Source of the DNA: an uncultured delta proteobacterium
GTDB lineage: Bacteria; Myxococcota; Myxococcia; Myxococcales; Myxococcaceae
Length of the DNA stretch: 64,000 nt
Reading direction: 5' to 3'
Assembly (NCBI GenBank): GCA_963771175.1
Contig: CAVYSY010000011.1
Location: forward strand, 145,032-209,031
Each line of letters opens with the position of its first letter. The stretch's first letter is position 1. The notes beneath the pieces are model-generated. The model did not search any database. It saw nothing but the letters and a program-made list of their open reading frames with translations, and had not been told where the DNA came from. The position numbers and the translations under genes are program-made. Below, piece after piece: positions 34,713 through 51,461 of the stretch.

Positions 34713-34826
34713 TCGGGAAGTTCCTCCGGCCACAGAACCTAGCAGGTCAGGGCGTGGAACTGACCAGTCCCGTGGGCACGGAGCTGCTGTTATGCTGGCG
34801 CTTGCTCGGAAGACGGAGGCCTCATC

Positions 34827-35063: not shown

Positions 35064-35069
35064 TCCGAG

Positions 35070-35957: not shown

Positions 35958-36034
35958 AAGGCCGGAGTCCATACCACCCAAGTGGCGCAGCCGTTTTCTC
36001 GGGGCGCTCCCATGCTGGGCAGTGGTCTCGTCGG

Positions 36035-36919
36035 CTACCCGTACGACTCCCGCTTGATGCGCTTGTCCTCGATGCCGAGGTCATGGAGATGGCCGAGCAC
36101 CGTCTCCATGAAGCGCGGCGTGGCCGGCGTGCGCGTCTCCAGCGCCTTGCGCCGGTCCCACGGGGTGATGGCCGGGCCGCACACGTAGACGAGGCACTTC
36201 TCCCGGTCCGGGATGAGCTCCGCCAGCAGGGCCTCGCTGACGCGGCCCTTGCGCACGCTCGGGCCGAAGTGGGACTCGTCCGTCTCGCGGGTGAGGGTGT
36301 GCACCACGCGCAGCTTGTCCGGGTGCGCGCGCTCGAGCGCCTCGAAGGCCTCCCGGTAGAGGATGTCGCCCCACGTCTTGTTGGAGAAGAGGACGGTGTG
36401 GCGCGGCTTGAGTCCCCGGTGCAGGGCGTCCTTGACGATGGCGAAGTTGGGCACCGCGCCCGAGCCGGCGACGACGTGGACGAGGTGGTCCGTGCGCTCC
36501 TCCACGTCGTCCGGGAGGACGTAGGGCCCCATGAAGCCGAGCACCTTGATGCGCGCGCCGGTGAGCCGGCCGTGGACGAGGTAGGGCGAGAGCAGGGGCG
36601 GGTACTTCGTGAAGCCGGGGATGTAGTCCTCGTCCTTCACGGTGATGGACACCAGCGGCTCGTGTGGCGCGGAGGCCATCGAGTAGGAGCGCGCGGGCTC
36701 CTTGCGCGCCTTGTGCTCCTGGAGGTAGGCGGAGAGCCGGCCGAGCGCGGGGAACTGGTGCGGGTCGATGTTGATGAACTGGCCGGCGCGGTACTCGGGG
36801 CGCTCGGGGCCGAAGTCCAGGTAGAGGGTGGCGGTGTCGTGCGTCTCCAGGCGCACGTCGGCCACCGTCACCTCGTACTCCTTGGGGCGGTTCCGGGCGG
36901 TCGTCACGGTTGCGCTCAT
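36035..36919 (-). CDS. FNR-like FAD/NAD(P)-binding oxidoreductase
   Basis: YRAGQFI, RSYSMAS, VAGSGAVP, YVCGP, C-terminal ESYG. Confidence 0.88.
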   Translation of the reverse strand: MSATVTTARNRPKEYEVTVADVRLETHDTATLYLDFGPERPEYRAGQFINIDPHQFPALGRLSAYLQEHKARKEPARSYSMASAPHEPLVSITVKDEDYIPGFTKYPPLLSPYLVHGRLTGARIKVLGFMGPYVLPDDVEERTDHLVHVVAGSGAVPNFAIVKDALHRGLKPRHTVLFSNKTWGDILYREAFEALERAHPDKLRVVHTLTRETDESHFGPSVRKGRVSEALLAELIPDREKCLVYVCGPAITPWDRRKALETRTPATPRFMETVLGHLHDLGIEDKRIKRESYG

Positions 36920-36990
36920 GGCGTCCTTCGTACCAGCCCGGTGGACGTTCTTTCGAGGAAAGCGTTGCGGCCGGGCGTCGGGCGCGGACA

Positions 36991-38155
36991 ATGCCGTTTC
37001 AGGTGACGACCGTCCAACAGAGGGATCAGGTGTTCGTCTCGGCGCTGCCGGGACTGGAGCCGGCCGTGGAGGCCGAGGCCGAGGCGTTGGGCTTCTCGCC
37101 CCGGAGGGTGGAGGGCGGGGTGGAGCTCACCGGCGAGCCGGGGCTGCACCAGGAGGCCAACCTGCGCCTGCGCACGGCGAGCCGGGTGCTGCTGCGGCTG
37201 GGGCGCTTCGCCGCGCCGGACGCCGGGGCCCTGGCGAAGGGCCTGGCCGGGCTTCCCCTGGGCAAGGTGTGGGACGGGAAGTCGGCGCCGAGGCTCTCGG
37301 TGGCCCTGCACGGCGCGCGTATCAAGGGGCAGGACGCGGTGCTGTCCGCCGCCGCGCGAGCCTGGGGACTGCCCTCGGTGGAGCGCGCGGGGCCGCTGGA
37401 CGAGGAGTCCTCCGAGGGCCTCACCCTGCTGGTGCGCCTGGAGGGCGACACGTGCACGGTGAGCGCGGACACCAGTGGTGAGCCGCTGCACCGGCGCGGG
37501 TATCGGCAGGAGGTGAGCCGGGCGCCGCTGCGCGAGACGCTCGCCGCGGGCATCCTGGTGCTGGCCGGGTATGACGGGGTGGAGCCGCTGGTGGACCCGA
37601 TGTGTGGCTCGGGCACCTTCCTCATCGAGGGCGCGTGGATGTCCCAGCGGCGGCGCGCCGGGCCTGGCGCGCTCGTTCGCCTTCGAGCGCTTTCCCGGCT
37701 TCGACGCGGCGGGCTGGGCGGCGCGGAAGGCAAGGGCGGAGGCGGAGTCCCTGCCGGCCCCGCGCGCGGTGTTGAGGGGCCACGACATCAACGCGGGCTC
37801 GCTGGGCACGGCGAGGCGCAACGCGCGGCGGGCGGGGGTGTCGCTCACGCTGGAGCGCCAGGACGTGCGCACGCTGGCGCTCCCGGCGGGACTCGGGCCT
37901 GGGCTGGTGGTGGTGAACCCGCCCTACGGCAAGCGGGTGGGGGAGGCGGAGGACCTGCCGGGGCTGTACCGGGCGATGGGGGCCACGTTCCGGCGAGCCT
38001 TCGCCGGCTGGCGCGCGGCACTGCTCGTCCCGGAGGACACGGGGTTGATTCGCGCGCTGGGACTGCCCGAGGGGAGGAGTCTGCCGGTGCGCAACGGCGG
38101 CCTGCGCTGCCGCCTGCTGTTGTGCTCGCTGCCCTCGTCCCAGTCCCGCGTGTGA
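36991..38155 (+). CDS. THUMP-domain RNA methyltransferase (RlmL/Trm14-like), apparent frameshift near 37655
   Basis: ANLRLRTASRVL, DTSGEPLHRRGYR, APLRETLAA, DPMCGSGTFLIE, NPPYGKR. Confidence 0.88.
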
Positions 38156-38200
38156 GGCGCTCGCGACGTCGGTTCGCGAGCGCCTGGCGACCCGGAGGAC

Positions 38201-39763
38201 CTACCGACCCACGGCGAGCCGCGAGGGCTTCGCCGAGGTGCCGTCCATGGCGAGCGCCCGCGCGACCATGACCTGGGCGGCGAGCACGGTGGAGCGCACC
38301 ACATGGAGGGGCCGGTAGAGGCCCTTGGCGATCCACAGCTTGGGGTGGATGTCGGAGGGCTCGCTCCCGTCGTAGGGCGCGAGGTAGGCGGTGCCCTTGG
38401 CGAGGATGCCGGCGTCGACGCTCAGGCCGGCGAGCCGCGCGGCGGCCAGGGCATGGAGGGCATAGGCGGTCTCCTCGGGCGAGCTGCGGCCGAACCAGCC
38501 CCAACCGCCGTCGGTGCGCTGGTTGGCCTGGAGCCACTGCACGGAGGGCACCACGCAGGAGGCATCCCAGCGCAGCAGCGCCCGCGTCGCGCGGCTGGTG
38601 ACGTAGTACACCGAGGCGTGCCACTTGTCCGTCCAGAAGCCATCCTGGCGGCGCTGGCTCAGCAGGAAGCGGGCGGACTTGTCCACCGAGTCCTGGCCGC
38701 CGGGGTACGGCCGGCCTTGGATGGCGTCCAGCACGTGGGCGTTCGCACTCACCGAGGCGCCGCGCTCCACGAGGAAGCCGACGAAGCCGTCTGGCCGCTC
38801 ATACTGCGCCAGCAGCTTCCAGTTCACCTCGTAGCCGTGGTCGTGCAGCAACCCGGAGGACACGGAGGTGTCATCCGAATCGCCGTAGGCGACCTCCGAG
38901 GACCACGCCAGCCCGAAGGCCTGGGTGTGCGAGCGGATGGCCTCCAGGTGTGGCTTCAGCTCCGGCTGGAGCTCGGGGCTCATCCCCGCCATGTGCAGGT
39001 GGTAGGCGATCCACAGCCGCTGCCACAGCTCGGTTCCCGTTCCGAAGGGGATGCTGCGGGGCCCGCGGCGGTCCACCAGTTCCCGCAGGCCGCGGAGCGC
39101 GCGCTCATCGCCGCTCTTCTGCACGAAGTGGGCGGTGGTCGCCACGCTCGCGCCCACGAGCCCGTTGGCCGTCTGCAGCTTGCGAGCCTGCTCCACGTCC
39201 AGCTTGTCGCGCAGGAACTCGAGCGAGAAGCCCAGGCTGAGATGGGGCGCGTACAGCATCTGGGGCGGCACCCGCGACATCTTCTCCTTGTGCAGGGCCT
39301 CGGCCGCGGCGCTCAATGCGTGGAGGTTGCTGAAGCCCCGCTCGCATACCTCCGCGAGCAGCGGGGCGGCCACCAGCTCGAAGCCGATGGTGAGATCCGG
39401 CTCATCCTTGAGCCGCGGCCAGCTCTTGAGGACGAAGGCCGCGGCGCGATCCGCCCGCGCGCGCGCTTCCGGCCCGTTGTCGAACTCGATCACCGCCAGC
39501 ATGGAGGAGAGCGTGGCCAGCAGCCGCGCGGAGACGTAGTCCACCTCCGGCGCCCAGCCACCATCCTCGGCCTGGGTGGTGCGCACCACCTCCAGCACCT
39601 CGGGGAAGGCCGGCTCTCGGGTGCCCGGCTTCGCCACGCGAGCCAGGAAGCCCGCGTCGTACTCCGAGTGCCCCACGTCGGCCATGTCGGGCTGGTCGAG
39701 CAGGGCGCGGGCGCGCTCCAGGAGCTGAGCCTTCGAAGGCAGGTGCGGGTCGATATCGGGCAT
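38201..39763 (-). CDS. Class II terpene cyclase (copalyl-diphosphate-synthase-like, beta-gamma didomain)
   Basis: YDAGFLARV (YDTAWVA-like); QW repeats QAEDGGW, QRRQDGFW, QRTDGGWG; IGFELV; catalytic DxDD = DSDDT; ERGASVSANAHVL; DKWHASVYY; EETAYAL; LWIAKGLYRP. Confidence 0.9.
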   Translation of the reverse strand: MPDIDPHLPSKAQLLERARALLDQPDMADVGHSEYDAGFLARVAKPGTREPAFPEVLEVVRTTQAEDGGWAPEVDYVSARLLATLSSMLAVIEFDNGPEARARADRAAAFVLKSWPRLKDEPDLTIGFELVAAPLLAEVCERGFSNLHALSAAAEALHKEKMSRVPPQMLYAPHLSLGFSLEFLRDKLDVEQARKLQTANGLVGASVATTAHFVQKSGDERALRGLRELVDRRGPRSIPFGTGTELWQRLWIAYHLHMAGMSPELQPELKPHLEAIRSHTQAFGLAWSSEVAYGDSDDTSVSSGLLHDHGYEVNWKLLAQYERPDGFVGFLVERGASVSANAHVLDAIQGRPYPGGQDSVDKSARFLLSQRRQDGFWTDKWHASVYYVTSRATRALLRWDASCVVPSVQWLQANQRTDGGWGWFGRSSPEETAYALHALAAARLAGLSVDAGILAKGTAYLAPYDGSEPSDIHPKLWIAKGLYRPLHVVRSTVLAAQVMVARALAMDGTSAKPSRLAVGR

Positions 39764-39939
39764 GGTCGGGATTCCTGTCTGGACCTCTCAGGGAGGAGGA
39801 GGTCTTGGCGGGAGGAAGTATCGCCGCTCGTCCACGGGAGGAAAAGACGTCCCGAGGTGGCGGGGCGGCCTCCTCACGGCGGGTAGAGGAGACTCATGAC
39901 GCGTGGTGCGCGCGAGGGGCCGTGTTGGTGGCGGCGCCC

Positions 39940-41361
39940 TCAAGCGCTCTTGGCGGTGGCGTGGGGCGTGCGCCTGCGCACCCGGAGCCACACGCCGTTG
40001 CGAGGCCGGGTCGCCCCGGCGACGGTCGCCTCCATGGGGCGGCCGGGCACGGGCTCGAGCTCGAAGCGCGACAGCAGCCGCGTCAGGACGAGCTGCCCCT
40101 CCATGAGCGCGAAGTCCCTGCCGATGCACAGCCGCTGGCCATTTCCGAAGGGAATCCAGGCCAGCGGGTGCCTCCCGGCCGAGCGCTCCGGAGTGAACCG
40201 CCACGGATCGAACTGGTCGGGCTGCTCCCAGAATTCGGGGTGCCGATGGATGACGTAGGTCATGACGCCGATCATCGAGCCAGCGGGGATGCGGTAACCG
40301 TCGATGACGTCATCCTCGACCGCCGTGCGCGGCACCCAGTAGGTGGGCGGGTACATGCGCAGGCCCTCCTGCAGCACCATGAGCACCTTCTGCAAGCGGG
40401 GCAGGTGCATGAGGGTGGGAGTGCTCTGTCCGAGCACCTGGTCGCATTCGTCCCGCACCATCTGGGCGAGGTCCTGCCGCTCGGCCAGGCTGCCGCAGGT
40501 GAAGGCCAGGGCGGTGGACGTGGTCTCGTAACCCGCCAGCAGCAGCGAGATGGCCTCGTCGCGGAGTTGGTGGTCCGTCATGCGGCCGCCCTCGTCATCC
40601 ACCGCGTCGATCAACATCCCCAGCAGATCGCCTTCGGAGTTGGAGCCCTTCTCCCGGCGCCGGGCGATCAGCTCGAAGATGATCTGGTCGATGTTGCGCA
40701 TGGCCTGCTCGAAGCGGCTGCGCCCCGGGGCGGGCATCCACTGGGGCAGCTTGCTGGTGAAGAGGCTGGAGAGCACATGCTGGACGACGTAGTCGAACTC
40801 CCGGCTCACCTGGGTGGCGGCTTCGGGCGAGATGTCGGCGCCGAACAGCGTCTTGACCACCACGTTCATGGTGAGGCGGGCGAACTCGTGGAAGCTGTCG
40901 AACGGCTCACCCGATTCCGCGGCCCGGTCCCAGCTCTCCAGGCTCTCGTCGATGGCCTTGAGCATGACGTCGAACAGGGTGGTGATGCGCTCCCGGTGGA
41001 AGTGCGGTTGGATCATGCGCCGTTGCCGCAGCCAGAAGTCGCCCTCGCTGGTGGGCAGCCCGTTGCCGACGATGCTTCGGATGGCGCCCCAGATGGGGCC
41101 ACCCTTGATGTAGCGGCGGGGATGGTCACGCAGCACGTGCTGGGCATGGCGCGGGTGGTTGAGCGCGATGCAGCGGGTGATGCCCAGGTCGAGCGTGTAG
41201 ATGTCCCCGTGTCGGGCTCTGGCGGAGAGGACATAGCCCAGGGCATCCCGCGCGAGGCCCGGCAGTGCTCCCACCAGGGGGAGTCCCGCACGGGGCGGCA
41301 GGGGCAGCGTCGAGTCGCTGGAGGAAGGCGCGGGGGGAGCGGGGGGATCGCGATCTGGCAT
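39940..41361 (-). CDS. Cytochrome P450
   Basis: I-helix AGYETT, EGLR (ExxR), FDPWRF, heme motif FGNGQRLCIG; start ATG 41361. Confidence 0.96.
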   Translation of the reverse strand: MPDRDPPAPPAPSSSDSTLPLPPRAGLPLVGALPGLARDALGYVLSARARHGDIYTLDLGITRCIALNHPRHAQHVLRDHPRRYIKGGPIWGAIRSIVGNGLPTSEGDFWLRQRRMIQPHFHRERITTLFDVMLKAIDESLESWDRAAESGEPFDSFHEFARLTMNVVVKTLFGADISPEAATQVSREFDYVVQHVLSSLFTSKLPQWMPAPGRSRFEQAMRNIDQIIFELIARRREKGSNSEGDLLGMLIDAVDDEGGRMTDHQLRDEAISLLLAGYETTSTALAFTCGSLAERQDLAQMVRDECDQVLGQSTPTLMHLPRLQKVLMVLQEGLRMYPPTYWVPRTAVEDDVIDGYRIPAGSMIGVMTYVIHRHPEFWEQPDQFDPWRFTPERSAGRHPLAWIPFGNGQRLCIGRDFALMEGQLVLTRLLSRFELEPVPGRPMEATVAGATRPRNGVWLRVRRRTPHATAKSA

Positions 41362-41476
41362 GTCTACTTCCGTTGCAAGAATCCAGCTTTCCCAGCATGC
41401 ACCATCTGCCGGGCCTTGCGTAGTGCGTCGAGCCGGGCGCATGGCCAGGGTGGGTAAATGCCCCTAGTATTCCGCC

Positions 41477-42424
41477 ATGTCCAATCCCTCAGTGCCCTCG
41501 GAGCCCTCCGACCCCACGGAGGCGGTAGTCCACTTCATCGAGACGAACGCCGTCACGTTCGAGCGAGGTGAGCCGCGGAAGTACTTCGCCAGGTTCACCA
41601 AGATGAATGGGGGGCTCACTCTGCCCATCGTGGACCCGGAGCACCTGACCAAGGTCATCCGGCTCAAGAATTTCTACGCCCTCTGGAATTTCCTGGTGGA
41701 CGATGAGATGGACCGGGATGGGCGCTCCACCGGACTCGACGACAGCATGATGATGCTGATGCATTACTCGCGGGGGGCACCTCTTTCGTCCCAGGTCTCC
41801 GTCGCTGCGCGGCTGCTCGAGAAGATCCTGCGGGAGGTGAAGGCGCTCTCCACCGCGAATGACCCGACCAAGGCCCGCCTGCGCGAGATGTTCTACTTCG
41901 ACCTGTGGGCGCTGATGACCGGGTTCAAGCACGAGGCCTGTATCAACGACATGAAGGAGGCGGCCAACCCGATGGAGTACATCAAGTACACCACCCTGGT
42001 CGGCTCCATCGAGCACCTGCTCGACCTGGACTGCCTCTTCGCCACCAGCACGCTGCCGCCCCCCGTCTACAACCGCCTGCGGGTGGCCTACGATCATCTC
42101 GGACGGGCGCTCAAGTTCTCCTCGGACGTCGGGTCGCTGAAGCGGGAACTGATGGAGGAGGACAACCTCAACCTCATCCGGATCCTGGCCGGCGGCGAGA
42201 ACATCACCGGCCTCGAGAAGAAGCTGTCGGAGGCGGAGTTCGAGGCCCTTCGCTCCGACCTCGAGCCCATCGTGAAGAAGGTGCGCGACATGGCCCGGGA
42301 GCACCTGGAGAAGGCGAGCAGTCTGCTGTCCGGCCTCTCGGGGGTGGATACCGGGCGGCTGCTGGGGACGGTCTCCTCCATCGTCCAGGAGTACTTCAAG
42401 GGCGACGTGTTCTTCCAGAAGTAA
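41477..42424 (+). CDS. Atypical class I terpene synthase / isoprenoid-synthase-fold protein
   Basis: DDxxD = FLVDDEMD; NSE/DTE-like SDVGSLKRE followed by NLNLIRIL; all-helical character, 315 aa; divergent from the P450-class II cyclase pair. Confidence 0.7.
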   Translation: MSNPSVPSEPSDPTEAVVHFIETNAVTFERGEPRKYFARFTKMNGGLTLPIVDPEHLTKVIRLKNFYALWNFLVDDEMDRDGRSTGLDDSMMMLMHYSRGAPLSSQVSVAARLLEKILREVKALSTANDPTKARLREMFYFDLWALMTGFKHEACINDMKEAANPMEYIKYTTLVGSIEHLLDLDCLFATSTLPPPVYNRLRVAYDHLGRALKFSSDVGSLKRELMEEDNLNLIRILAGGENITGLEKKLSEAEFEALRSDLEPIVKKVRDMAREHLEKASSLLSGLSGVDTGRLLGTVSSIVQEYFKGDVFFQK

Positions 42425-42435
42425 GCGGTGCTCGC

Positions 42436-42462
42436 GGGAAGGCGGGGGGAGCCCGCCTTCCC
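42436..42462. terminator. GC-rich hairpin between convergent terpene synthase and MCP
   Basis: GGGAAGGCGGG-gggag-CCCGCCTTCCC, a perfect 11-bp stem; no U-tract. Confidence 0.5.
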
Positions 42463-42475
42463 ACAGCCGCGGTGA

Positions 42476-44321
42476 CTACTCCGGCCTGTTGTTGGCCGGT
42501 GTGCCGGGCTGCTCGGCCGGCGCGGAGCCGTCCTGCATCCAGCCGTACTGGCCGACGAAGCCAGTCACCTGCTGGGCCACGTTGCGGACCACGGAGATGG
42601 CCTCCTCCGAGGCACGCAGCTGGGTCATCGTCTGATCCATGATGCGCGTCATGTCGGTGACGGCCTGGGTGATCTGCACGATGCCCGCGTCCTGCTGGGT
42701 CACCGCGGCGGCGATCTGCCGCACCGAGTTGGCGTTGTCGCGCACGATGGCCGAGAGCTGCTGCACCTGTTGGCTGAAGCTCTGGATCTGCACCAGGCTG
42801 CTCTCGACGCGCTTGGTGCCCTTCTCCGTGAGCGTGGCCGCGCTGGCGATGGCGGTGCCGATGCCCTGGAGGATGGAGCGGATGTTGTGAGTGGCGCGGA
42901 TGGACTGATCCGCCAGTGAGCGGATCTCCTTGGCCACCACGCCGAAACCCTTGCCGCTCTCGCCGGAGCGCACCGCCTCGATGGCGGCGTTGAGCGCGAG
43001 CATGTTCGACTGGTCGGCCAGGTCCTTCACGATGGCCGTGATGCGGGCGACCTGCCGGGCCTGCTCATCCAGGGACTTGATGCTGGTGGCGATCTCACGC
43101 ACCTGCGCGCCGATATCCGACAGGCCCGCCATGCCCTCCTGGATGGCCGCCTCGCCGGAATGGCTGATGTCCTGGGCCTTCTCGGCCTGCTTGAGGATGT
43201 TGTTGGCCGTCTTCGCGGCGAGCTGCGAGGTCTGGGTGATCTCCTCGGTGGTGACCTGGGTCTCCTGCAGCGCGGTGGCCTGGACCGACAGCACCTCCGT
43301 CTGCTTCGTCGTCGACAGCCCGAGCTGCTGGGCCGAGTCCTGCAGCGAGAGGGCGGAAGCGCGCAGCGACATGGAGAAGGAGCGCAGCTGCTCGAAGACG
43401 CGGGCGGTGGCGGCCGACAGGTCGCCGATCTCATCGGTGGAGATCCAGTTGGGCAGCCGGGGCTGACCGCTGGCCAGGCCCACCAGGGCGTCCTGGATGC
43501 TCATCGCGCCCTCCTGCTGCCGACGGGCGAGCACCCACGCCGTCGTGCCGGCGATGGCCAGGAGGTAGCCACCCAGGATGACGAGGGGGATCATCGAGTC
43601 CCGGGCCAGCTTGGTGAGCATCTGCTGGATGAGCGCCTGCACCTCGGCGGTGCTGACGGCGGCGCTCTTGGCCAGCAGCTCATGGTAGGTGTCGTAGCCC
43701 TGCCGGCCGATGATGGTGAGCGTCATCGCCAGGGTGCAGGCCACGAAGAGCGCGAGCGTGTAGGGCAGGAACCACGACTGGCGGGGCCACAGGAAACCCC
43801 TGCCCTTGGGCGTCAAGGTCCCCGCGAGGATGGAACTGCTTGACCGCGTAGGGGCTGAGGATCCGCTCCATCTGGTACTGCTCCACCACCATCAGCAGCG
43901 CCAGGTGCAGTCCCGTGGCGACCAGCGCCCATAGGATGAGCAGCGGATCCCGGCCGAACAGCACGACCGAGCCACCGACGAGGAAGCTCACGCCCGGCAC
44001 GAACGTGGCGAAGATGGCGATCACGATGGTGCCGGGAACCTTGAGGATGCTCTCGAGCTGGACATCAGGTGGCGTGCTCGCCGGCACATCGAAGGCGCGC
44101 TGCACGGCCCGGCGCGTGACCAGGTAGGGGATGAGGATCGTCAGCACCGTGCTGGAGATGGGCGCCAGGTAGCCGAAGATGGTGATGGCCTCCTTGCGGT
44201 TGAGGCCCATGATGACCGCCAGCAGGTACAGCATGGCTGGGGAGCCGATGACATTAGAGACCTGCCGGGCATTCCACAGCTTCTTGAAGACCTTGGTGGC
44301 TTCTGGCGAGAGAGAACTCAT
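42476..44321 (-). CDS. Methyl-accepting chemotaxis protein with multi-TM sensor region (apparent frameshift near 43825)
   Basis: N-terminal half in ORF 43680..44345, C-terminal half in 42476..43816; LADQSNMLALNAAIEAVRSGESGKGFGVVAKEIRSLA; STDEIGDL. Confidence 0.88.
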
Positions 44322-44740
44322 GTGTATTCGCTGGGGTACTCCCAAAGAGGCTTGACGGCCAGCTTACACGCCATGGGCGCGATCTCCAAGGTTCGGAGTC
44401 AAGCGGATTTCCCGGGACTCATGCACCTCAGGAGCGCAGGCAGGCTGGCTGGCGCGGGACCTGACGGGCGGCTCGAACCGCGCCAGGTGCACTCCCAGTC
44501 CGTGCTGCCCCCTACCTCCGAGGGGGGTGCCCTCCGTTGTGCTCCCTACCCGCGGCACGAGCTGACGCCATTTTAAAAATCTTCAATAGGGATGTGCGGG
44601 GAAGTGTCTTGTACTGAACGGATACGCGATTTTCGAAGGGAGAAGTGCTCGACACCTCACGATGATGGCTAGGCTCTCGCCCCCACCCGCATCCATCTCA
44701 ATGACAGTCACATTCTGTCGCATCCACCGAAGGGGGAACC

Positions 44741-45976
44741 GTGGGGAGCGCAGCCCGGCAGCTCGTCATCAATCCAGTCAGTCCCGAGAACCTTCTCGAT
44801 CCAGTCCCGCTCTACGAGGAGATGCGCAAGAACGCCCCGGTCTTCTGGTCTGACCTGGTGCAGGCCTGGTTCATCACGCGTAACGAGGACGTGATGAACT
44901 GCTTCCGCGACAGCCGGCTGAGCGCCAACCGGACGAGGTTCTACGAGGCGCAGCTCCGAGGCATGGACGTGGAGGTCATCCGGGAGCTGATGCAGAGCCT
45001 CAGCCACCAGGTGGGCATGAAGGACGGCGCGGAGCACCAGCGCCTGCGCCGGCAGGTCAACCCGGGCTTCACACCACAGATGCTCGACTCCTGGCGGCCC
45101 GCCATCCGCCGCATCATGGAGATGTTGGTGGACCGGGTCGAGCCCATGGGCCGCATGGACCTGTTCCTGGATATCGCGCACCAGTTGCCTGTGCTCGTCA
45201 TCGCGGAGATCCTGGGCATCCCCGCAGAGGATCGCGAGCGCTTCCAGGCGTGGGTGCAGCCGATCGCCGAATTCACGAGCCCCTCCCTGGGGGTGGACGT
45301 GGCGGCGCTGGCCCGCCGGGCCACCGCGTCCATGAAGGAGTTCAATGCCTACCTGCTCGGGGTCATCCAGGAGCGCCGCCGCACCCCCGGTGACGACGTG
45401 CTCAGCCGGATGATCCACAATCAGGAGGGGGGTGGGATGTCCGAGGATGAGCTGGTGGCCAACGTCAACCTCATCCTCTCGGCCGGGCATGTCACGACCA
45501 CCGACCTGCTCAGCAACACCGTCCATGATCTGCTGGCGCACCCCGACCAGTACCAGAAGCTCCGGGAGGACCGCGGTCTGCTGGCCTCGGCGGTGGAAGA
45601 GGCCATCCGCTTCACCCCATCGATGCCTTTCATCCACCGGATCGCCGTGGAGGACGTCCAGCTCCATGGCAAGACCATCCGCAAGGGCGACGTCGTCTTC
45701 CTCGGCCTGTCGTCCGCCAATCGCGATCCGGAGGCTTTCCCGGACCCGGATACCTTCGATATCACCCGCAGTCCATCCCCGCAGAAGAACATGGCCTTCG
45801 CCTTCGGGCCGCACTACTGCCTGGGCTCGGGGCTGGCCCGCCGCGAAGTGGAGATAGCCCTCGACGTGCTCCTCGAGCGTCTGCCCGGCCTGCGCCTGGA
45901 CGAGCGGATCCCGCCGCGCGTCAAGTGCCACACCTTGCTCTTCCGGGGCTTTGATTCGCTGCCCGTGCGTTGGTAG
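44741..45976 (+). CDS. Cytochrome P450
   Basis: HQRLRRQVNPGFTP, I-helix SAGHVTT, EEAIR, SANRDP, FAFGPHYCLG. Confidence 0.96.
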   Translation: MGSAARQLVINPVSPENLLDPVPLYEEMRKNAPVFWSDLVQAWFITRNEDVMNCFRDSRLSANRTRFYEAQLRGMDVEVIRELMQSLSHQVGMKDGAEHQRLRRQVNPGFTPQMLDSWRPAIRRIMEMLVDRVEPMGRMDLFLDIAHQLPVLVIAEILGIPAEDRERFQAWVQPIAEFTSPSLGVDVAALARRATASMKEFNAYLLGVIQERRRTPGDDVLSRMIHNQEGGGMSEDELVANVNLILSAGHVTTTDLLSNTVHDLLAHPDQYQKLREDRGLLASAVEEAIRFTPSMPFIHRIAVEDVQLHGKTIRKGDVVFLGLSSANRDPEAFPDPDTFDITRSPSPQKNMAFAFGPHYCLGSGLARREVEIALDVLLERLPGLRLDERIPPRVKCHTLLFRGFDSLPVRW

Positions 45977-46107
45977 GGACCTGGCGGTCGCCCCGGACCC
46001 TGCTTCATCGTCGGCCAACCCCCCTGCTTCGTCCGTGCTCGACAAGCAGGTGGGGTGGCACTAGCGTCGGGGCCGTGCAAGATCCGGCCAATGAAACGTC
46101 TACCGGG

Positions 46108-47349
46108 GTGACGGGCTCCACCCAGAGCCAGCGCTTCAACTTGGTCTCCCCTGAGAACCTGCTCAATCCCATTCCCGTCTACAAGCATCTGCGGGAGAAC
46201 GACCCGGTTCATTGGTCCGACGTACTGCAAAGCTGGTTCATCACCCGTCACGACGACGTGGTGAACGGCTTTCGTGACCCGCGCCTGAGCGCCGACCGCA
46301 GCCAGTTCCTGGAGCATCAGGTGCGGCTGCTGGGACTGACCCCTGAGATCATCGGGAACATCATCGAGAGCCTCCGCCGACAGATGGTGAACGCGGATGG
46401 TGCGGCACACCTGCGCCTGCGCCGACTGGCCAGCCCGGGCTTCACTCCCCAGCTGCTCGACACCTGGCGCCCGGCCATCCGCACCACCATGAACATGCTG
46501 ATGGAGCGGGTGCAGGGGCGGGAGCGCATGGACCTGGTGAAGGAGCTGTCCTACCAGCTGCCACCGCTCATCATCTGCGAGCTGCTCGGCGTGCCCGCCG
46601 AGGATCGCGAGCGCTTCCAGGAGTGGGGGCGAACCATCGTCCAGTTCAACAGCCCCACGGTGGGCGTGGACCTGGTGGATCTGGCCCACCGGGCCAACGA
46701 GGCCATGGGGGAACTCACCCGATATCTGACGACGGTCATCGAGAAGCGCCGCCACTCCCCGGGCCAGGATGCACTCAGCTTGATGATCCAATCCCAGGCG
46801 GAGGGGGGGTTGTCCGAGGAGGAGGTGCTGGCCAACGCGGTGCTCCTGCTGTCGGCTGGGCACCTCACCACCACCGATCTGCTCAGCAATGGCGTGCACG
46901 ATCTGCTGTCGAACCCTGAGCAGTTCCAGAAGCTGCGCGAGGATCCCGCCCTGATCAAGTCGGCCGTGGAGGAGATCCTCCGCTTCCGCCCGGCGGTGCC
47001 TTTCATCCACCGCGTCGCCGCGGAGACCTTCCAACTGAGGGGTCGGACCATCAAGAAGGGGGACATCGTGTTCCTCGGGATGGCTTCCGCCAATCGCGAC
47101 CCGGCGATCTTCCCCGACCCGGACACTTTCGACATCACGCGCGACCACTTCCACCTGAAGCACATCGCCTTCGGCTTCGGGCCGCACCACTGCCTGGGCG
47201 CGGGCCTGGCTCGCCGTGAGCTGGAGATCGCGCTCGAGGTGCTCATCGAGCGTCTGCCGGGCCTGCGGCTGGACGAGACGCAGGCGCCGCGGGTGAAGTG
47301 CAGCAGCCTGCTCTTCCGCGGCTTCGATTCGCTCCCCGTGCGCTGGTGA
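46108..47349 (+). CDS. Cytochrome P450 (tandem paralogue of the preceding gene)
   Basis: SAGHLTT, EEILR, SANRDP, FGFGPHHCLG. Start uncertain: GTG 46108 chosen by alignment with the paralogue, GTG 46075 also possible. Confidence 0.95.
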   Translation: MTGSTQSQRFNLVSPENLLNPIPVYKHLRENDPVHWSDVLQSWFITRHDDVVNGFRDPRLSADRSQFLEHQVRLLGLTPEIIGNIIESLRRQMVNADGAAHLRLRRLASPGFTPQLLDTWRPAIRTTMNMLMERVQGRERMDLVKELSYQLPPLIICELLGVPAEDRERFQEWGRTIVQFNSPTVGVDLVDLAHRANEAMGELTRYLTTVIEKRRHSPGQDALSLMIQSQAEGGLSEEEVLANAVLLLSAGHLTTTDLLSNGVHDLLSNPEQFQKLREDPALIKSAVEEILRFRPAVPFIHRVAAETFQLRGRTIKKGDIVFLGMASANRDPAIFPDPDTFDITRDHFHLKHIAFGFGPHHCLGAGLARRELEIALEVLIERLPGLRLDETQAPRVKCSSLLFRGFDSLPVRW

Positions 47350-47367
47350 CGGGGTAGGGGCTCCTCG

Positions 47368-48999
47368 TTAGCGCGGGCCCTTGCCGGACGGAGTGGGGAG
47401 CAGCGGCCGAGGCAGCACCTCGAGCGGCAGCCGCAGCTCGAAGCGCGCGCCGCCTCCGGGCCGCTGGCCCACCGACACCGTGCCGCCATGGGCGAGCACC
47501 ACCCGGCGCACCACGGCCAGCCCCAGACCCGTGCCCGTGGTGCGCGTGGTGAAGAAGGGCTCGAAGACGCGCTGGGCATCGGCCGGGGCGACTCCCGGGC
47601 CCTCATCCTCCATGGTGAGGCGGACGCCCTCCGGCACGCGCCCCACCGCCATGCGCACCAGCCCTCCCGAGGGCGAGGACTGCACCGCGTTGCGCATCAG
47701 GTTCTCCAGCGCGAGTTGCATCAGCGTCTCGTCCGCCTGGAGGAGGGGCAGCTCCGGCTCCTCGTCCAGCGTCACCCGTACGGTGCCGAGCTGACGCCGC
47801 TCGTGGAAGAGCTCCAGTGTGCGCCGGGCCAGCTCGCCCAGGTGCAGCGGGCGCGGCCGGGGCTCCAGCGGACGCACCACGTCCAGCAAGTCCCTCACCA
47901 TCGCGTCCAGCCGCGTGGCCTCCTCCTCCAGCATCTCCACCGCGCTGGTGCCCACGGGGCCCAGCTTGTCCCGCTTGAGCACCGCCACGGCGTTGAGGAT
48001 GGCACCCAGCGGGTTGCGCACCTCGTGGGCCACCACACCCGCGGCCTCGCCAAGCACCGTCAGTCGCTCCTGCGCCACCAGCTCCGCCTGCAGCCGCGAT
48101 AGCTCGGCCAGGCGCGTGGCGGCGAGCCGGTGGTGGCGCACGTTCTCCAGTGCCCCGCCCACCTGCCGCGCGAACAGCTCCAGCGTGGCCGCGCTCGCCG
48201 GCGTCAGCGCCTCGCCCTGGATGGACAGGATTCCGTAGGGCTCCTCCTCCACCAGGATGGGGGCATCCAGGGCCCGGACCATGGGGTAGGCGCTCCGCAT
48301 CCGTGCCAGCAGCTCCGCGTCCTGGGCGCCCACCAGTGCCCGGAGGAAGTCATTGTGGAACGCCGCCTTGCGTCGGGCGAAGACCTCCTCGAGGTGCGGC
48401 AGGCTGGAGCGGGGGAAGCGCACCTCCTGGATGGGGCGTCCGTAGAGCAGCTCGCCCGCGGCCACCTGGGCGGCGTCCTGCCGCATCGGCCCATGGACGA
48501 GCACGTCCCCCTCGAGCAGCAGCACCGTCACGAAGAAGCCCTGCCGGTGGATGGCCTCGACGGCCGTCTCCAGCACGGCCTGCTCGTCGCGGCAGCGCAC
48601 CAGCTCCCCGGCGGCCGCCACCAGCGCCTCGGTGAGCCGCCGCATGCTGGCCTCGCCCTCGGCGTCGAGCAAGAGGAGCAGCGTGTCCTCGGGACGCAGC
48701 CCGCTGCCCCGGCGCATGCAATAGGTCCGCTCCTGGCCTCCCGCCACGCGCACGCTCGTCCACAGCGTGTCGGGGACCGCCTCCCCGCGCGTGTGCTCCT
48801 CGTGCAGCGGCTTCAGCCACGAGCAGTCCTGGGGGAAGAAGCGGGCCAGCAGCTCCGACACCGTGGCGGCGCGCACCACCTCCTCGATGCCGAGCAGCGT
48901 CAGCAGCGCCGGGTTGGCGTAGATGACCTGGTCGCCGCGCACCACCAGGGCCGGCACCGGGAGCCCATCGAGTGGCCGGTACTTATCCGTGTCGGACAC
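47368..48999 (-). CDS. Cytoplasmic sensor histidine kinase (PAS-like, GAF-like, HisKA, HATPase)
   Basis: VIYANPA (PAS-like), AHEVRNPL, NLMRNA, EDEGPG, FEPFFTT, GTGLGL. Confidence 0.92.
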   Translation of the reverse strand: MSDTDKYRPLDGLPVPALVVRGDQVIYANPALLTLLGIEEVVRAATVSELLARFFPQDCSWLKPLHEEHTRGEAVPDTLWTSVRVAGGQERTYCMRRGSGLRPEDTLLLLLDAEGEASMRRLTEALVAAAGELVRCRDEQAVLETAVEAIHRQGFFVTVLLLEGDVLVHGPMRQDAAQVAAGELLYGRPIQEVRFPRSSLPHLEEVFARRKAAFHNDFLRALVGAQDAELLARMRSAYPMVRALDAPILVEEEPYGILSIQGEALTPASAATLELFARQVGGALENVRHHRLAATRLAELSRLQAELVAQERLTVLGEAAGVVAHEVRNPLGAILNAVAVLKRDKLGPVGTSAVEMLEEEATRLDAMVRDLLDVVRPLEPRPRPLHLGELARRTLELFHERRQLGTVRVTLDEEPELPLLQADETLMQLALENLMRNAVQSSPSGGLVRMAVGRVPEGVRLTMEDEGPGVAPADAQRVFEPFFTTRTTGTGLGLAVVRRVVLAHGGTVSVGQRPGGGARFELRLPLEVLPRPLLPTPSGKGPR

Positions 49000-49079
49000 C
49001 GCGCTTCCTCCTCTCCGGATGCAATCAACCCCGGGGGGGCTCCGTATATCGGAGCGTAGTCCTCAAGGGGGAATTGCAC

Positions 49080-49190
49080 ATGCGCTTCGCCAATATGATG
49101 GACCGGGACGATCTGGAGCTGAAGGCGGTTGCGGCGGTGGCGGCCAGCTACCTCCTGCTGGCCACGGTGTTCCTCAGCGGGCTGTTGTAG
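49080..49190 (+). CDS. Small putative membrane peptide (36 aa)
   Basis: AAGGGGGA RBS; MRFANMMDRDDLELKAVAAVAASYLLLATVFLSGLL; G/C-rich third codon positions. Confidence 0.45.
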   Translation: MRFANMMDRDDLELKAVAAVAASYLLLATVFLSGLL

Positions 49191-49713
49191 GGGCCACGGC
49201 GCGGGTGGTGCGGAGGAACTCGTCGAGGAAGCCGCGCTCCTCGGTGCGGAGATCCGCCAGACCGAGCCCATAGCCGCGCGGCTGCTTGCCGTCGTTCAGC
49301 GTGTACTCCCAGATGACGGAGCTGCGCAGCTTGATTTGACGCTGCGGCTGCTCGAAGTTGAGCACCAGCTCCACCCGCGTCCCCAGCTTGAGCGGCTTGT
49401 CCGTGGGGATGAAGAGGCCGCCGGACTGCAGGTTGATGATGCGGTGGTCGGTGAAGATGCCCGCGTTGCGTGTGGACACCTTGATGTCGACCTGGAGCCG
49501 GTCGTTGCGCGTCATCTGCAGCCCGACGAACTCCTCGGCCGAGTAGGTGTAGGCGGGCGCCTGCTGCACGGCGGCGCGCCCGTGGGAGGGGGTCGCCGTC
49601 TGGGCCACGGGCGCGGCTCGCGGGGTGAGCTGGGCCTCCACCTCGCGCATGCGGCGCGCGAGCAGCTCGAAGATCTCCGTGTGGGCCTTGCGCAGCTCGG
49701 GGTTGTTGTGGTC
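49174..49713 (-). CDS. PilZ-domain protein, 5' end lost at the chimeric junction
   Basis: RNDRLQVDIKV...INLQSGGLFI...LKLGTRVELVL...VIW...GYGL; frame stays open (DHNNPELRKAHTEIF) up to the GC shift. Confidence 0.8.
   Translation of the reverse strand, partial: DHNNPELRKAHTEIFELLARRMREVEAQLTPRAAPVAQTATPSHGRAAVQQAPAYTYSAEEFVGLQMTRNDRLQVDIKVSTRNAGIFTDHRIINLQSGGLFIPTDKPLKLGTRVELVLNFEQPQRQIKLRSSVIWEYTLNDGKQPRGYGLGLADLRTEERGFLDEFLRTTRAVAPTTAR
49706..49713. other. Junction between high-GC myxobacterial and low-GC clostridial sequence
   Basis: Abrupt composition switch; genes on both sides are truncated; no mobile-element ends visible. Confidence 0.95.
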
Positions 49714-50377
49714 TATTATTAGGATTAATTATTTGTGCCATTATATTTCCACCAAAGGCTGGTCTTATTTGAATTAAATCTGTATTTTCTTTCATACCAA
49801 GGATAGTACAATCTGCTGTTAATCCTGTTCTAAATCTAGCTGCAATTCTAGGAGCTAAGGATCTTCCAATTGTTGTTGCACCAACTAATATAGTTGAAGG
49901 CTTATTGTTATTTATAAAATCTTCAAAGGCCTTTGTATAAGGTTCTATCCTAAAATATTTAAACTCTTTATCATCATATACAAACACTTCATCAACTCCA
50001 TAATGAAGTAATTCTTCTGCTTTCTCTTTTATGTTTTCTCCAATAAATACTGCATAAACTGGATGATTTATTTTACTTGCAAGCTCTTTTGCTTTTCCAA
50101 TTAGCTCATATGTAACTGGATGTATATCTCCATCTACATGGTCAACATATACTGCTATTCCTCTCCAAAGACTTTTATCTATTAATACTTTCTTGTCTTC
50201 TACAAATTCAACAACTCCAGCTGGTCCTTTCTTAACGCATAATCTACACATTTTACATCCAGCTGAAATTTCAAGCTTATTTTCTTTTCTTTCCATTGCA
50301 CCAAATGGACATATTTTAACTAATTCTTCTATAACTTCATCATTTAATTTATTTTCATTAATAACTAACTTTCCCAT
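49706..50377 (-). CDS. etfA: Electron transfer flavoprotein alpha subunit with N-terminal ferredoxin-like domain, 3'-truncated at the junction
   Basis: CPFGA...CKMCRLC; ELIGKA, GATTIGRSLAPRIAARFRTGLTADCT, RPAFGGNIMAQI...NRPQ; AGGAGG RBS. Confidence 0.93.
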
Positions 50378-50412
50378 TATAGTTCCTCCTAACACTAAAT
50401 CTTTCTACTTTT

Positions 50413-51201: not shown

Positions 51202-51234
51202 TTAATAGTACCTCCCATATTTTATTTACTGGTC

Positions 51235-51458: not shown

Positions 51459-51461
51459 ACA

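Follow-up and report, generated by a model that had tools for sequence, protein, structure and literature searches.

The genes packed between positions 38201 and 47349 raise the question of whether they form a terpenoid pathway, what such a pathway would make, and whether the chemoreceptor gene lying among them belongs to it. The window, i.e. the whole stretch of DNA analysed, has a length of 64,000 nucleotides.

Gene content and related loci

All six genes named in the first-pass annotation were found between 38201 and 47349, and its statement that no unrelated gene separates them was borne out (Table 1). Third-position GC was high in the six listed ORFs (GC3 0.87–0.96), as expected in a genome of about 69% GC. 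The claim of a terpenoid biosynthetic cluster with class II and class I enzymes and three intact-looking P450s was supported. The histidine kinase flanking the cluster is probably a neighbour rather than a member; the L001 contig ends in a stretch 91% identical to its last 33 aa, and the kinase side lies outside what L002 shows.

Table 1. Features of the terpenoid locus and its flank, in window coordinates.
Feature	Coordinates	Strand	Characteristics
Class II cyclase	38201-39763	-	520 aa; GC3 0.94; Pfam SQHop_cyclase_C/N; DSDD at residues 295-298
P450a	39940-41442	-	500 aa; GC3 0.88; Pfam p450 7.5e-84
Putative class I synthase	41477-42424	+	315 aa; GC3 0.91; Pfam Terpene_syn_C_2 2.2e-08; DDEMD 75-79; SDVGSLKRE 216-224
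Chemoreceptor (MCP), C-terminal part	42476-43816	-	446 aa; GC3 0.96; MCPsignal 3e-32; TM helices 5-6
Chemoreceptor (MCP), N-terminal part	43830-44321	-	TM helices 1-4; other frame than C-terminal part; in-frame GC3 0.89
MCP frameshift site	43810-43830	-	net +1 base relative to L001 and L002; four-G run at 43820-43823
P450b	44741-45976	+	411 aa; GC3 0.90; Pfam p450 3.8e-36
P450c	45970-47349	+	459 aa; GC3 0.87; Pfam p450 7.7e-37
PAS-GAF histidine kinase	47368-48999	-	Pfam HATPase_c, HisKA, GAF, PAS; flanks cluster

Of the two related loci, both in Archangium MAGs, L001 had the gene order cyclase (-), P450a (-), synthase (+), MCP (-), P450 (+) and kinase (-), while L002 had P450 (+), cyclase (+) and synthase (+), followed by MCP (-), ribD, nrdR, glyA and fab genes. 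The cyclase and synthase genes of L002 are co-directional and separated by 58 bp. Cyclase, synthase, MCP and P450 were thus together in both loci despite rearrangement and differing flanks. Since the gene set recurs in two other loci, chance is an implausible explanation, but as the three loci share one lineage, common descent may account for part of the conserved order. When 185,579 species-representative genomes were scanned by motif, the class I family turned up in two loci only, both of Archangium MAGs, and in no cultured Archangium or Cystobacter genome. For four of 15 class I family proteins the longest contig was identical in length to that of a class II match. The 44 ORFs scanned in the 49.7-kb myxobacterial part of the window included neither a GGPP or FPP synthase nor a ferredoxin or an Rv3378c-type transferase; a GGPP synthase of their own is common in bacterial diterpenoid clusters.

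The earlier claim of a multi-TM MCP stands insofar as the gene is that of a membrane chemoreceptor, but the listed ORF of 446 aa is only its C-terminal part. The N-terminal half lies in a separate overlapping ORF in another frame (43680-44345, real start about 44321), and four TM segments were predicted in the N-terminal and two in the C-terminal part. The window gene is read as frameshifted because its two ORFs jointly match single intact proteins of L001 (665 aa) and L002 (614 aa), both of which are tiled by the window fragments. On these alignments the predicted product is a single six-helix membrane protein of about 610 aa, split by a +1 frameshift near 43820-43823. With tblastn the halves fell into frames -3 and -1, the break lying between 43830 and 43810, the DNA alignment to the related loci included one extra base in the window gene, and in a three-frame reading GC3 of the N-terminal frame dropped from 0.89 to 0.52 beyond the break. 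Over about 440 aa the C-terminal part shared 77% identity with L001 and 65% with L002, and the N-terminal part was 51% identical to residues 44-214 of the L001 protein. The MCP gene adjoins the class I gene, in convergent orientation, in all three loci examined, and its presence in the cluster is therefore that of a conserved neighbour and not an accident of one genome. The signalling role put forward in the first-pass annotation is not readable from the window copy, the frame of which is broken; that the receptor would function in signalling is what we infer.

The enzymes and the proposed route

The cyclase matched the Pfam families SQHop_cyclase_C (2.3e-10) and SQHop_cyclase_N (2.1e-08). Its closest solved relative was 6vpt_A (E 1.3e-48, residues 31-500 covered), which is MtHPS/Rv3377c of Mycobacterium tuberculosis, and weaker matches were PtmT2 (5bp8; 6.8e-26) and Tpn2 (7xkx, so named in its published description; 4.8e-25). 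By this comparison the predicted beta-gamma cyclase belongs to the Rv3377c/MtHPS clade. In the alignment D295, H341, Y479 and A475 of MtHPS correspond to D297, H343, Y483 and A479, the cyclase thus retaining the catalytic Asp (D297, the middle Asp of DSDD), the activating His, and the Tyr/Ala pair that marks the halimane-forming enzymes of the clade. Also a D-x-T-x-G-F-E stretch near residue 123 is conserved, whereas the DxDT of MtHPS is replaced by canonical DSDD and its Y328 by Phe. JGI labels five of the 15 closest relatives (at least 45% identity) halimadienyl-diphosphate synthase, which is automatic annotation.

According to Stowell et al. 2022, Y479 is 92% conserved in the Rv3377c family and position 475 is non-basic, 'consistent with most members forming a halimane skeleton', and a type I synthase is present in 33% of the BGCs with Rv3377c homologues. 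These residues do not fix the product, because Tpn2 is reported to have the same Asp/Tyr/non-basic machinery and yet to make a clerodane. The host of the window, a myxobacterium, falls outside the 'terrabacterial' membership reported for the Rv3377c subfamily. In the Rv3377c-Rv3378c (1-TbAd) locus the partner of the cyclase is the prenyltransferase-fold enzyme Rv3378c, whereas in the window it is a predicted class I-fold synthase, and the window also has P450s and an MCP, unlike that locus.

The class I synthase scored 34.6 bits with Terpene_syn_C_2 (cut-off 23.7), but matched no NCBIfam model and, by sequence or by profile, no PDB entry. Its AF2 model (pLDDT 89.4) resembled class I terpene synthases in the Foldseek search (TM 0.55-0.66, identity 12-20%), these being the top ones among the matches listed of the 145 at E<=0.001. 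On the modelled fold, the product of 41477-42424 is a divergent class I (alpha-fold) terpene synthase of putative activity. Its clade is small and uncharacterised, with 15 close proteins and, at E<=1e-30, 37 representatives; two distant relatives are fusions, P0166 with a polyprenyl synthase and P0147 with a P450. The DDxxD metal site is kept, with D75 and D76 present in all 47 relatives and D79 in 46 of them. In the NSE motif Ser replaces Asn, as in all 16 close relatives, the motif check found no RY pair, and a Lys occupies what we take to be the position of the pyrophosphate-sensor Arg. The synthase differs from canonical bacterial enzymes in three of four motifs, which speaks against the main reading, and because of these departures it may not be an ordinary cyclase.

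The haem-cysteine motif FxxGxxxCxG is kept in all three P450s (FGNGQRLCIG at residue 432 of P450a, FAFGPHYCLG at 353 of P450b and FGFGPHHCLG at 401 of P450c). P450a was 69% identical to its L001 homologue from residue 34 onward, and its true start probably lies downstream of the ORF start. Its best NCBIfam matches, below cut-off, were albaflavenone monooxygenase (8.9e-75) and pentalenene oxygenase (7.4e-71), and its closest PDB entries 7wzl (1.1e-70) and then 3dbg (3.7e-53), presumably CYP170A1. P450b and P450c are tandem paralogues with 62% identity over 404 aa, P450c resembling P450b only from about residue 56. P450b was 61% identical to the sole L001 copy and 55% to that of L002, and its PDB neighbours were generic bacterial P450s, such as PksS (4yzr; 1.1e-68).

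In the proposed route the cyclase would start from a linear prenyl diphosphate, GGPP being the most likely one, and by protonation yield a bicyclic diphosphate, probably rearranged (halimane- or clerodane-like). The class I enzyme would ionise this, followed by further cyclisation or elimination or by transfer of the terpenyl cation to an acceptor, and the P450s would then oxidise the terpenoid product. The same logic of two terpene synthases with P450s (two of each) appears in the terpentecin (tpn) cluster with Tpn2/Cyc1, as described, and Tpn2 and the window cyclase have the class II fold and DxDD chemistry in common. The same source gives tpn a GGPP synthase and a ferredoxin, with mevalonate genes close by, none of which was found in the window, while the window, in contrast to tpn, has an embedded MCP and a synthase with no detectable sequence relative among solved structures. 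Among diterpene synthases of myxobacteria, the tetraisoquinene synthase TiqS of Melittangium boletus was reported to be the first one characterised (Nat Commun 2025, PMC12009305), type I diterpene synthases having been unknown from them before according to its authors. TiqS is likewise a myxobacterial class I enzyme with a C20 substrate, the likeness being one of description; as described there, it stands alone, belongs to the type I subfamily IPR034686 and uses GGPP directly, whereas the window synthase is paired with a class II cyclase.

Alternative readings of product and chemoreceptor

The first-pass annotation considered the layout possibly new, but a similar core is already in print as the candidate sora cluster (Okoth et al. 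2020, Molecules 25:2676, PMC7321100, Table 4). This core comprises a P450 of 457 aa (sora7; P450c has 459 aa), a type II protein of 518 aa (sora8; 520 in the window, 518 in L002), a type I cyclase of 333 aa (sora9; 315 and 311, respectively) and a 'sensory transducer' of 609 aa (sora11; the L002 MCP has 614). In L002 the P450, type II, type I and MCP genes also follow one another as sora7-8-9-11 do in the published numbering. The sora hosts (Vitiosangium cumulatum MCy10943, with versions in Archangium and Cystobacter) are of the same bacterial family as the window host, and a 2025 preprint lists the cluster as conserved across the genus Archangium. Differences include a second type II gene (sora12) and the hypothetical sora10 in the sora cluster, P450a and the P450 duplication in the window, and the flanks (MetE/MetH and others in sora; methyltransferase, FNR-like protein and kinase in the window). 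Likened by gene sizes, order and descriptions, the locus and this candidate 2-hydroxysorangiadenosine cluster are probably of one kind. By metabolome correlation the sora cluster is linked to a sesquiterpene-adenosine rather than to an acid or alcohol of the labdane diterpenoid type (PMC7321100); with this link, the route from GGPP to a diterpenoid is weakened to one of two live readings. The lack of a GGPP synthase among the 44 scanned ORFs also counts against that route.

The other reading, which we consider rather unlikely but worth weighing, is that the locus makes a terpenyl-adenosine of the sorangiadenosine or 1-TbAd type instead of a free oxidised diterpenoid. The class I-fold enzyme would then move the cyclised terpenyl group to adenosine in the role of Rv3378c or, following Okoth et al., the class I enzyme would make a sesquiterpene to which the class II-like protein adds adenosine; in both variants the P450s would hydroxylate the product. 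Besides the similarity in core and gene sizes, the sora cluster was picked by comparison of producers and non-producers in Vitiosangium, Archangium and Cystobacter, and sora7-9 and sora11 were retained in the truncated Cystobacter version (PMC7321100). Its assignment is nevertheless in silico with metabolome correlation, the authors calling for genetic confirmation (PMC7321100), and a literature search gave no later paper confirming it. Rv3377c, the closest characterised relative of the cyclase, serves a terpene-nucleoside pathway, and the adenosine-prenylating Rv3378c is reported for 44% of the BGCs with Rv3377c homologues, but no Rv3378c-type gene was found among the 44 scanned ORFs. The altered diphosphate-site motifs of the class I enzyme and the lack of a GGPP synthase among these ORFs would suit a terpenyl-adenosine, whereas Sora9 is described with the canonical NSE triad and RY dimer, both missing in the window synthase. 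We know of no precedent for a class I-fold adenosine terpenyl transferase.

Also improbable, in our view, is that the MCP is dedicated to sensing the membrane-soluble terpenoid which the cluster itself would make, and steers motility or development. Its adjacency to the class I gene holds though order and flanks differ between L002 and the other two loci, and the 609-aa transducer is retained in the truncated sora version, but the three loci come from one lineage and effectively amount to a single evolutionary observation of this adjacency. The sensor part is predicted to lie wholly in the membrane as six helices, with no periplasmic domain of appreciable size, which would suit a lipid ligand; however, a 36%-identical six-helix paralogue at 4659-6731 adjoins unrelated genes, so that terpene clusters are not the only setting of this architecture. 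Divergence of the sensor part is close to that of the enzymes (51% and 33% against 46-58% identity) and the signalling part is better conserved (77% and 65%), but faster divergence is in any case usual for the N-terminal domains of MCPs. In favour of a sensor, a complete set of che genes is present 14 kb off, at 16744-24234. Against the sensor reading are further the frameshift in the window gene and the fact that the MCP forms its own transcription unit.

Decidedly improbable is an ordinary FPP-derived cluster, in which a class II enzyme would form a drimane-type diphosphate to be tailored by P450s resembling sesquiterpene oxidases, a reading favoured by the missing GGPP synthase (44 ORFs scanned), by the sesquiterpene oxygenases that are the best, below cut-off, family matches of P450a, with 3dbg as its second PDB match, and by the sesquiterpene-derived sora product (PMC7321100). 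The characterised relatives Rv3377c, PtmT2 and Tpn2 use GGPP according to their descriptions, as do the copalyl diphosphate synthases among the matches listed for the cyclase, and the automatic halimadienyl label of five of the 15 closest relatives points the same way. Since no allylic diphosphate remains in bicyclised FPP for class I ionisation, the pairing of class II and class I enzymes fits C20 better.

The substrate, the product and the order of the reactions are what we infer for the cluster. From its sequence, the locus is fairly likely to be a working-type terpenoid biosynthetic cluster of an Archangium-like soil myxobacterium (Archangiaceae), in which the product would be built along the proposed route from cyclase to synthase to P450s.

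Gene content of the locus and composition of the window

The GC content of the window was about 69-70% up to approximately position 49,712 and about 29-30% from there on, the change spanning about 50 bases. The junction (49,650-49,760) cut the ORFs on its two sides, a PilZ-domain ORF and an ETF subunit, and the window has the look of a chimeric assembly, or a concatenation, of two unrelated sequences. The terpenoid locus was situated entirely inside the high-GC portion. This portion included the domain families DUF2381 and DUF2378, which we take to be typical of myxobacteria, and the loci closest to it carry the label Archangium sp. The low-GC portion (49,713-64,000) included ETF beta and alpha, a GntR/FCD regulator, a GH5 mannanase with a galactose-binding domain, tyrosyl-tRNA synthetase, DUF7010, a HAD hydrolase, an FtsX permease and a fragment of a group II intron reverse transcriptase/maturase, and these genes bear no relation to the terpenoid locus.

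Because GC-rich DNA is open on both strands almost throughout, frames were chosen by third-position GC content (GC3) and then confirmed with Pfam. GC3, Pfam domains and motifs agreed on six genes at 38201-47349, just as the first-pass annotation had described them: a class II cyclase, three cytochrome P450s (P450a, P450b and P450c), a class I synthase and a chemoreceptor (MCP).

Features of the window discussed in the text (GC3, third-position GC content)
Feature	Position	Strand	Length (aa)	GC3	Domain or remark
Second MCP	4659-6731	-	690		
che gene set	16744-24234				
FNR-like oxidoreductase	36035-36991	-		0.97	NAD_binding_1
Class II cyclase	38201-39763	-	520	0.94	SQHop_cyclase domains; DSDD at 295-298
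P450a	39940-41442	-	500	0.88	Pfam p450, 7.5e-84
Class I synthase	41477-42424	+	315	0.91	Terpene_syn_C_2, 2.2e-08, above curated cut-off
MCP ORF	42476-43816	-	446	0.96	MCPsignal, 3e-32
ORF overlapping the start of the MCP ORF	43680-44345		221		No Pfam match
P450b	44741-45976	+	411	0.90	Pfam p450
P450c	45970-47349	+	459	0.87	Pfam p450
PAS-GAF histidine kinase	47368-48999	-			Right flank, after P450c
PilZ-domain ORF	49174-49650	-			
ETF subunit	49713-50395	-			
Group II intron reverse transcriptase/maturase fragment	54391-55137	-			

The apparent transcription units were P450a with the cyclase (minus strand), the synthase (plus), the MCP (minus) and P450b with P450c (plus). A promoter and terminator scan of 38000-49200 gave no promoter-like and two terminator-like sites; shuffled sequences gave no fewer, so the scan was uninformative for the host organism. 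The left flank of the locus was formed by an RNA-methyltransferase-like gene and the FNR-like oxidoreductase. At 34,300-36,000 the GC content was lower (0.665 in the 34-36 kb bin) and competing ORFs had weak codon bias and no Pfam match.

All three P450s had the Pfam p450 domain and the FxxGxxxCxG haem-cysteine motif, and P450b and P450c are tandem paralogues with 62% identity. Their redox partner could be the FNR-like protein, whose gene is 1.2 kb away from that of the cyclase, on a side that neither of the two related contigs compared below reaches. No ferredoxin was seen among the 44 ORFs scanned in the high-GC portion.

The class II cyclase and the class I synthase

The first two aspartates of the DSDD motif of the cyclase were present in all 14 close relatives (at least 47% identity, aligned), and the last one differed in two of these database proteins (DSDN in P0023 and DSDV in P0026). 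Both SQHop_cyclase_C and SQHop_cyclase_N scored above the Pfam cut-offs, and the protein had 17 PDB sequence matches, among them Rv3377c, PtmT2, Tpn2 and plant CPS enzymes. The DxDD motif and the full-length homology to solved class II enzymes argue for a class II cyclase. The best chain was 6vpt_A (E 1.3e-48, residues 31-500), followed by the next chain at 1.9e-29 and no better value for any other. The available sections of PMC9585517 describe PDB 6VPT as MtHPS (Rv3377c), the halimadienyl (tuberculosinyl) diphosphate synthase of M. tuberculosis.

When residues of MtHPS were mapped onto the cyclase via the HMMER alignment, the general acid D295 corresponded to D297, the activating residue H341 to H343, the catalytic base Y479 to Y483, and A475, a non-basic position, to A479. 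The second active-site tyrosine examined by mutagenesis, Y328, was replaced by Phe, and the acid motif DxDT of MtHPS by the canonical DSDD. As DxDT and Tyr328 do not define the whole Rv3377c subfamily, the identity of the cyclase product is not fixed by their absence. According to the parts of Stowell et al. 2022 available (PMC9814783), Y479 is conserved in 92% of the subfamily and position 475 is non-basic, a pattern taken there to mean that most members form halimanes; by the same source Tpn2, which shares these residues, produces a clerodane. The nearest characterised relative, the tyrosine base and the non-basic 475 position place the cyclase in the Rv3377c/MtHPS subfamily, and the residues point to a rearranged labdane-type product without fixing it.

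The same source reports a type I synthase in 33% of the biosynthetic gene clusters with Rv3377c homologues and an equivalent of Rv3378c in 44%, so the pairing of class II and type I enzymes present in the window has already been counted in a survey. No characterised example of a pair of Rv3377c homologue and type I synthase was found in the literature searched. The source also identifies PDB 7XKX as Tpn2 (PMC9814783). About 22 cyclase relatives were found at 40% identity or higher, mostly metagenomic, and several of them bear the automatic JGI annotation halimadienyl-diphosphate synthase. Some relatives were longer than the window protein: the cyclase gene (68-2257, minus strand) of L001, one of the two related loci compared below, has an in-frame insertion of about 169 aa at 305-811, near the C-terminal end and without a Pfam domain, and the metagenomic P0021, P0024 and P0025 have 663, 731 and 780 aa, respectively.

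The class I synthase matched no NCBIfam model, and against the PDB only chance-level matches (E at least 0.19) were obtained, both by phmmer and by a profile of 16 sequences. In the absence of a sequence match the protein was placed by fold comparison only. The AF2 model (pLDDT 89.4, pTM 0.88, alignment of 10 sequences) gave 145 Foldseek matches at E≤0.001; those listed were class I terpene synthases, with TM up to 0.66 and 12-20% identity. The modelled structure thus has the alpha-helical terpene synthase fold.

The DDxxD motif is DDEMD (75-79), with D75 and D76 present in all 47 full-length relatives and D79 in 46 of them. The second metal motif, SDVGSLKRE, agrees with (N/D)Dxx(S/T)xxxE at the D, S/T and E positions. 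Ser occupies the first position in all 16 close relatives and in 33 of the wider 47; another seven of the 47 have Asn. No RY pair was present anywhere in the protein. Tyr306, presumed to align with the RY pair, occurs in all 16 close relatives; none of these has Arg just before it, and of the wider 47 three do. At position 170, the presumed site of the pyrophosphate-sensor Arg, 14 of 16 close relatives have Lys, and 16 of the wider 47 have Arg. The synthase thus lacks the RY pair and would lack the pyrophosphate-sensor Arg of bacterial class I enzymes, and its motifs depart in part from the canonical set.

The family of the class I synthase is small. A single-query search passed 10 proteins of 3,040 candidates and a profile search of a collection of 5.8 billion clusters 15 proteins of 8,000; among 1.84 billion representatives there were 119 matches at E≤0.001, 60 at ≤1e-10 and 37 at ≤1e-30. 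No characterised member of the clade was found. Two distant members are fusions, P0166 (630 aa) with a polyprenyl synthetase domain and P0147 (711 aa) with a P450 domain, which supports a role of the family in isoprenoid metabolism.

Related loci and the embedded chemoreceptor

A motif scan of one genome per species (185,579 species) matched 31 stretches, of which only two encoded relatives of the class I synthase, both on contigs of Archangium sp. MAGs. The 8.5-kb contig L001 had the cyclase (-), P450a (-), the synthase (+), an intact MCP of 665 aa (-) and a single P450 (+), and it included the tail of the histidine kinase that flanks the locus in the window. L002 had a P450 cut by the contig start (+), the cyclase (+), the synthase (+) and an intact MCP of 614 aa (-), followed by ribD, nrdR, glyA, fabF, an ACP, fabD and fabH.

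Identity of the proteins of the window to those of the two related loci
Protein	L001	L002
Class II cyclase	52%	58%
P450a	69%	None within 13.9 kb
Class I synthase	49%	46%
P450b	61%	55%
MCP, signalling part	77%	65%
MCP, sensor part	51%	33%
Histidine kinase tail (33 aa)	91% (8381-8479 there)	

The layouts indicate that the cyclase, the synthase, one P450 and the MCP stay together through inversion and changed flanks. These four were present in all three loci, and P450a was not seen in the 13.9 kb of L002. The co-conservation is limited evidence, since all three loci come from one lineage. Indirect support for co-location was given by four of the 15 class I family proteins, which matched a class II hit in longest-contig size (209031, 8479, 11730 and 6188). 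The kinase tail was 91% identical to that of L001 and the enzymes 49-69%, so the terpene genes seem to diverge much faster than their neighbour on the same site of the chromosome.

In the window the frame of the MCP is broken. When the intact MCPs of L001 and L002 were compared with the window by tblastn, their N-terminal parts fell on 44348-43830 (frame -3) and the remaining residues on 43810-42491 (frame -1), and the DNA alignment showed one extra base. The two fragments tile the intact proteins, only a loop of six residues between them being unaccounted for. Up to the break the N-terminal fragment had an in-frame GC3 of 0.89; immediately beyond it this value was 0.52, and the other frame, at 0.96, took over. 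The break is placed between 43810 and 43830, at or beside a run of four G (43820-43823). The two pieces are best read as one gene with a +1 frameshift, not as an uninterrupted frame. Either a genuine mutation or a sequencing error in the homopolymer could account for the frameshift; the N-terminal fragment has no sign of decay.

The signalling domain (PF00015) covers residues 235-392 of the C-terminal ORF and is present also in L001 and L002. The joined fragments give an MCP with six predicted membrane helices, of which four come ahead of the break and two behind it, and without a sizeable periplasmic domain by prediction. The sensor module had no Pfam family even at E≤10, and its model (pLDDT 75.1) gave no Foldseek match in the PDB at E≤0.001. 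Atlas gave a weak MASE10 lead (score 0.83), all leads being below 0.9 except one unnamed cluster at 0.90. The module matches none of the described families and folds.

A second MCP of the window has a similar multi-helix membrane N-terminus, with five to six helices. Along most of the length of the L001 and L002 cluster MCPs it shares 36% identity with them, and it adjoins a GT22-type glycosyltransferase and an Omp85 gene, and by this paralogue the multi-helix sensor architecture forms a paralogous family in the host genome. A complete che set is located 14 kb from the locus, consisting of a CheY-CheW fusion, CheR, CheW, a CheA-CheY hybrid, CheB and an sCache_3_2/HAMP MCP. It could serve orphan receptors; nothing ties it to the cluster MCP.

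Proposed pathway, the candidate sora cluster and biological meaning

What the analyses demonstrate of the mechanism is which folds and catalytic motifs the enzymes have, that the haem sites of the P450s are intact, and that the gene neighbourhood is conserved. In the proposed pathway the cyclase would protonate GGPP to give a bicyclic, probably rearranged, diphosphate, which the class I enzyme would ionise, and the P450s would oxidise the product. GGPP is favoured as substrate because the characterised relatives Rv3377c, PtmT2 and Tpn2 use it, and because a bicyclised C15 diphosphate has no allylic diphosphate left for a class I enzyme to ionise. Against the GGPP route counts that no GGPP synthase was present among the 44 ORFs scanned in the high-GC portion. 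A gibberellin-type operon was rejected, as no SDR, ferredoxin or GGPP synthase was found and the cyclase is nearer to Rv3377c than to the ent-CPP synthase PtmT2.

The main rival reading is a terpene-nucleoside pathway. It is favoured by the unusual motifs at the diphosphate site of the class I enzyme, by the role of Rv3377c itself in the synthesis of 1-TbAd, and by the terpene-nucleoside product proposed for the published sora cluster. The sections of Okoth et al. 2020 available (PMC7321100) describe a cluster of 22 genes in Vitiosangium cumulatum as the candidate for the synthesis of sorangiadenosine and 2-hydroxysorangiadenosine, with, at its centre, a P450 (sora7, 457 aa), a protein counted by antiSMASH as type II cyclase and named 'eudesmadiene transferase' (sora8, 518 aa), a type I cyclase (sora9, 333 aa), a hypothetical protein (sora10), a 'sensory transducer' (sora11, 609 aa) and a second type II protein (sora12). 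Similar clusters are reported there from several Archangium strains, and a truncated version in Cystobacter keeps sora7-9 and sora11. The link to the compounds was based on feeding experiments, retro-biosynthesis and a comparison of producers and non-producers, genetic confirmation being outstanding by the authors' own statement (PMC7321100). A 2025 preprint, in the text available, names the cluster as one that is conserved across Archangium as a genus (PMC12224551). No later experimental test was found in the literature searched by compound names, and the available sections of PMC11476799 (terpene-nucleoside evolution) and PMC12800573 (metabologenomics) contain nothing on myxobacterial homologues.

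Both clusters have a P450, a type II and a type I protein and a transducer side by side, and compared by description the composition, the protein sizes (Table 4 of PMC7321100) and the taxon fit the locus well, L002 especially. However, Sora9 is described with an NSE triad and an RY dimer, which are absent from the window synthase. The class I family was not matched in any cultured Archangium or Cystobacter representative genome in the motif scan, and among NCBI-named proteins the profile search found none beyond the L001 MAG protein. The Sora9 motifs and the absence from cultured genomes count against simple identity with the sora cluster; all these observations would fit a variant of sora type whose class I enzyme has been exchanged or has diverged strongly. 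The novelty claimed in the first-pass annotation is thus weakened, the locus being very like a cluster already in print, itself an unverified candidate, in content, sizes and taxon. Its reading as a class II/class I/P450 terpenoid locus with a conserved MCP stands, except that the MCP frame is broken. Judged from its sequence, the locus would best be filed as a cluster of an Rv3377c-family class II enzyme, a type I synthase and P450s.

The MCP may be functionally linked to the product of the cluster. In all three loci it has kept its place beside the class I gene, in convergent orientation, a transducer of the same size is present in the published sora cluster, and the all-membrane sensor of the MCP diverges about as fast as the enzymes. 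On the other hand, the MCP is frameshifted in the window, the 36% identical paralogue has unrelated neighbours, and the three loci are phylogenetically close. The available sections of Okoth et al. give the counterpart just as 'sensory transducer' in a table (PMC7321100), and those of PMC6997564 mention MCPs and terpenes in Archangium sp. and not the window locus. No remark on the conserved position of the MCP, or on MCPs in myxobacterial terpene clusters, was found in the literature searched. A joint reading, improbable when taken as a whole, would be a make-and-sense module, in which an Rv3377c-type cyclase, a terpenyl transferase of class I fold with an altered diphosphate site and a P450 would make a membrane-active terpene conjugate such as a terpene-nucleoside, and the MCP would detect this lipid product in the bilayer and feed a che pathway for gliding or development.

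According to a 2025 survey, in the sections available, no type I diterpene synthase had been known from myxobacteria before it (PMC12009305), and the literature searched gave no characterised pair of class II and class I enzymes for the phylum. The locus offers a candidate for such a pair, and its cyclase shares a clade with a virulence-lipid enzyme of tuberculosis. Of interest are also an uncharacterised class I clade with an unusual metal-site motif and a conserved MCP of undescribed sensor type; if none of these holds, the locus is one more cryptic terpene cluster. The comparison also bears on the sorangiadenosine proposal, which gives a class II-like protein an unprecedented 'transferase' role. 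If the joint reading were true, this would be the first natural-product cluster with its own chemoreceptor for its product, and the MCP offers a concrete case for the question of whether bacteria have dedicated taxis receptors coupled to a specialised metabolite.
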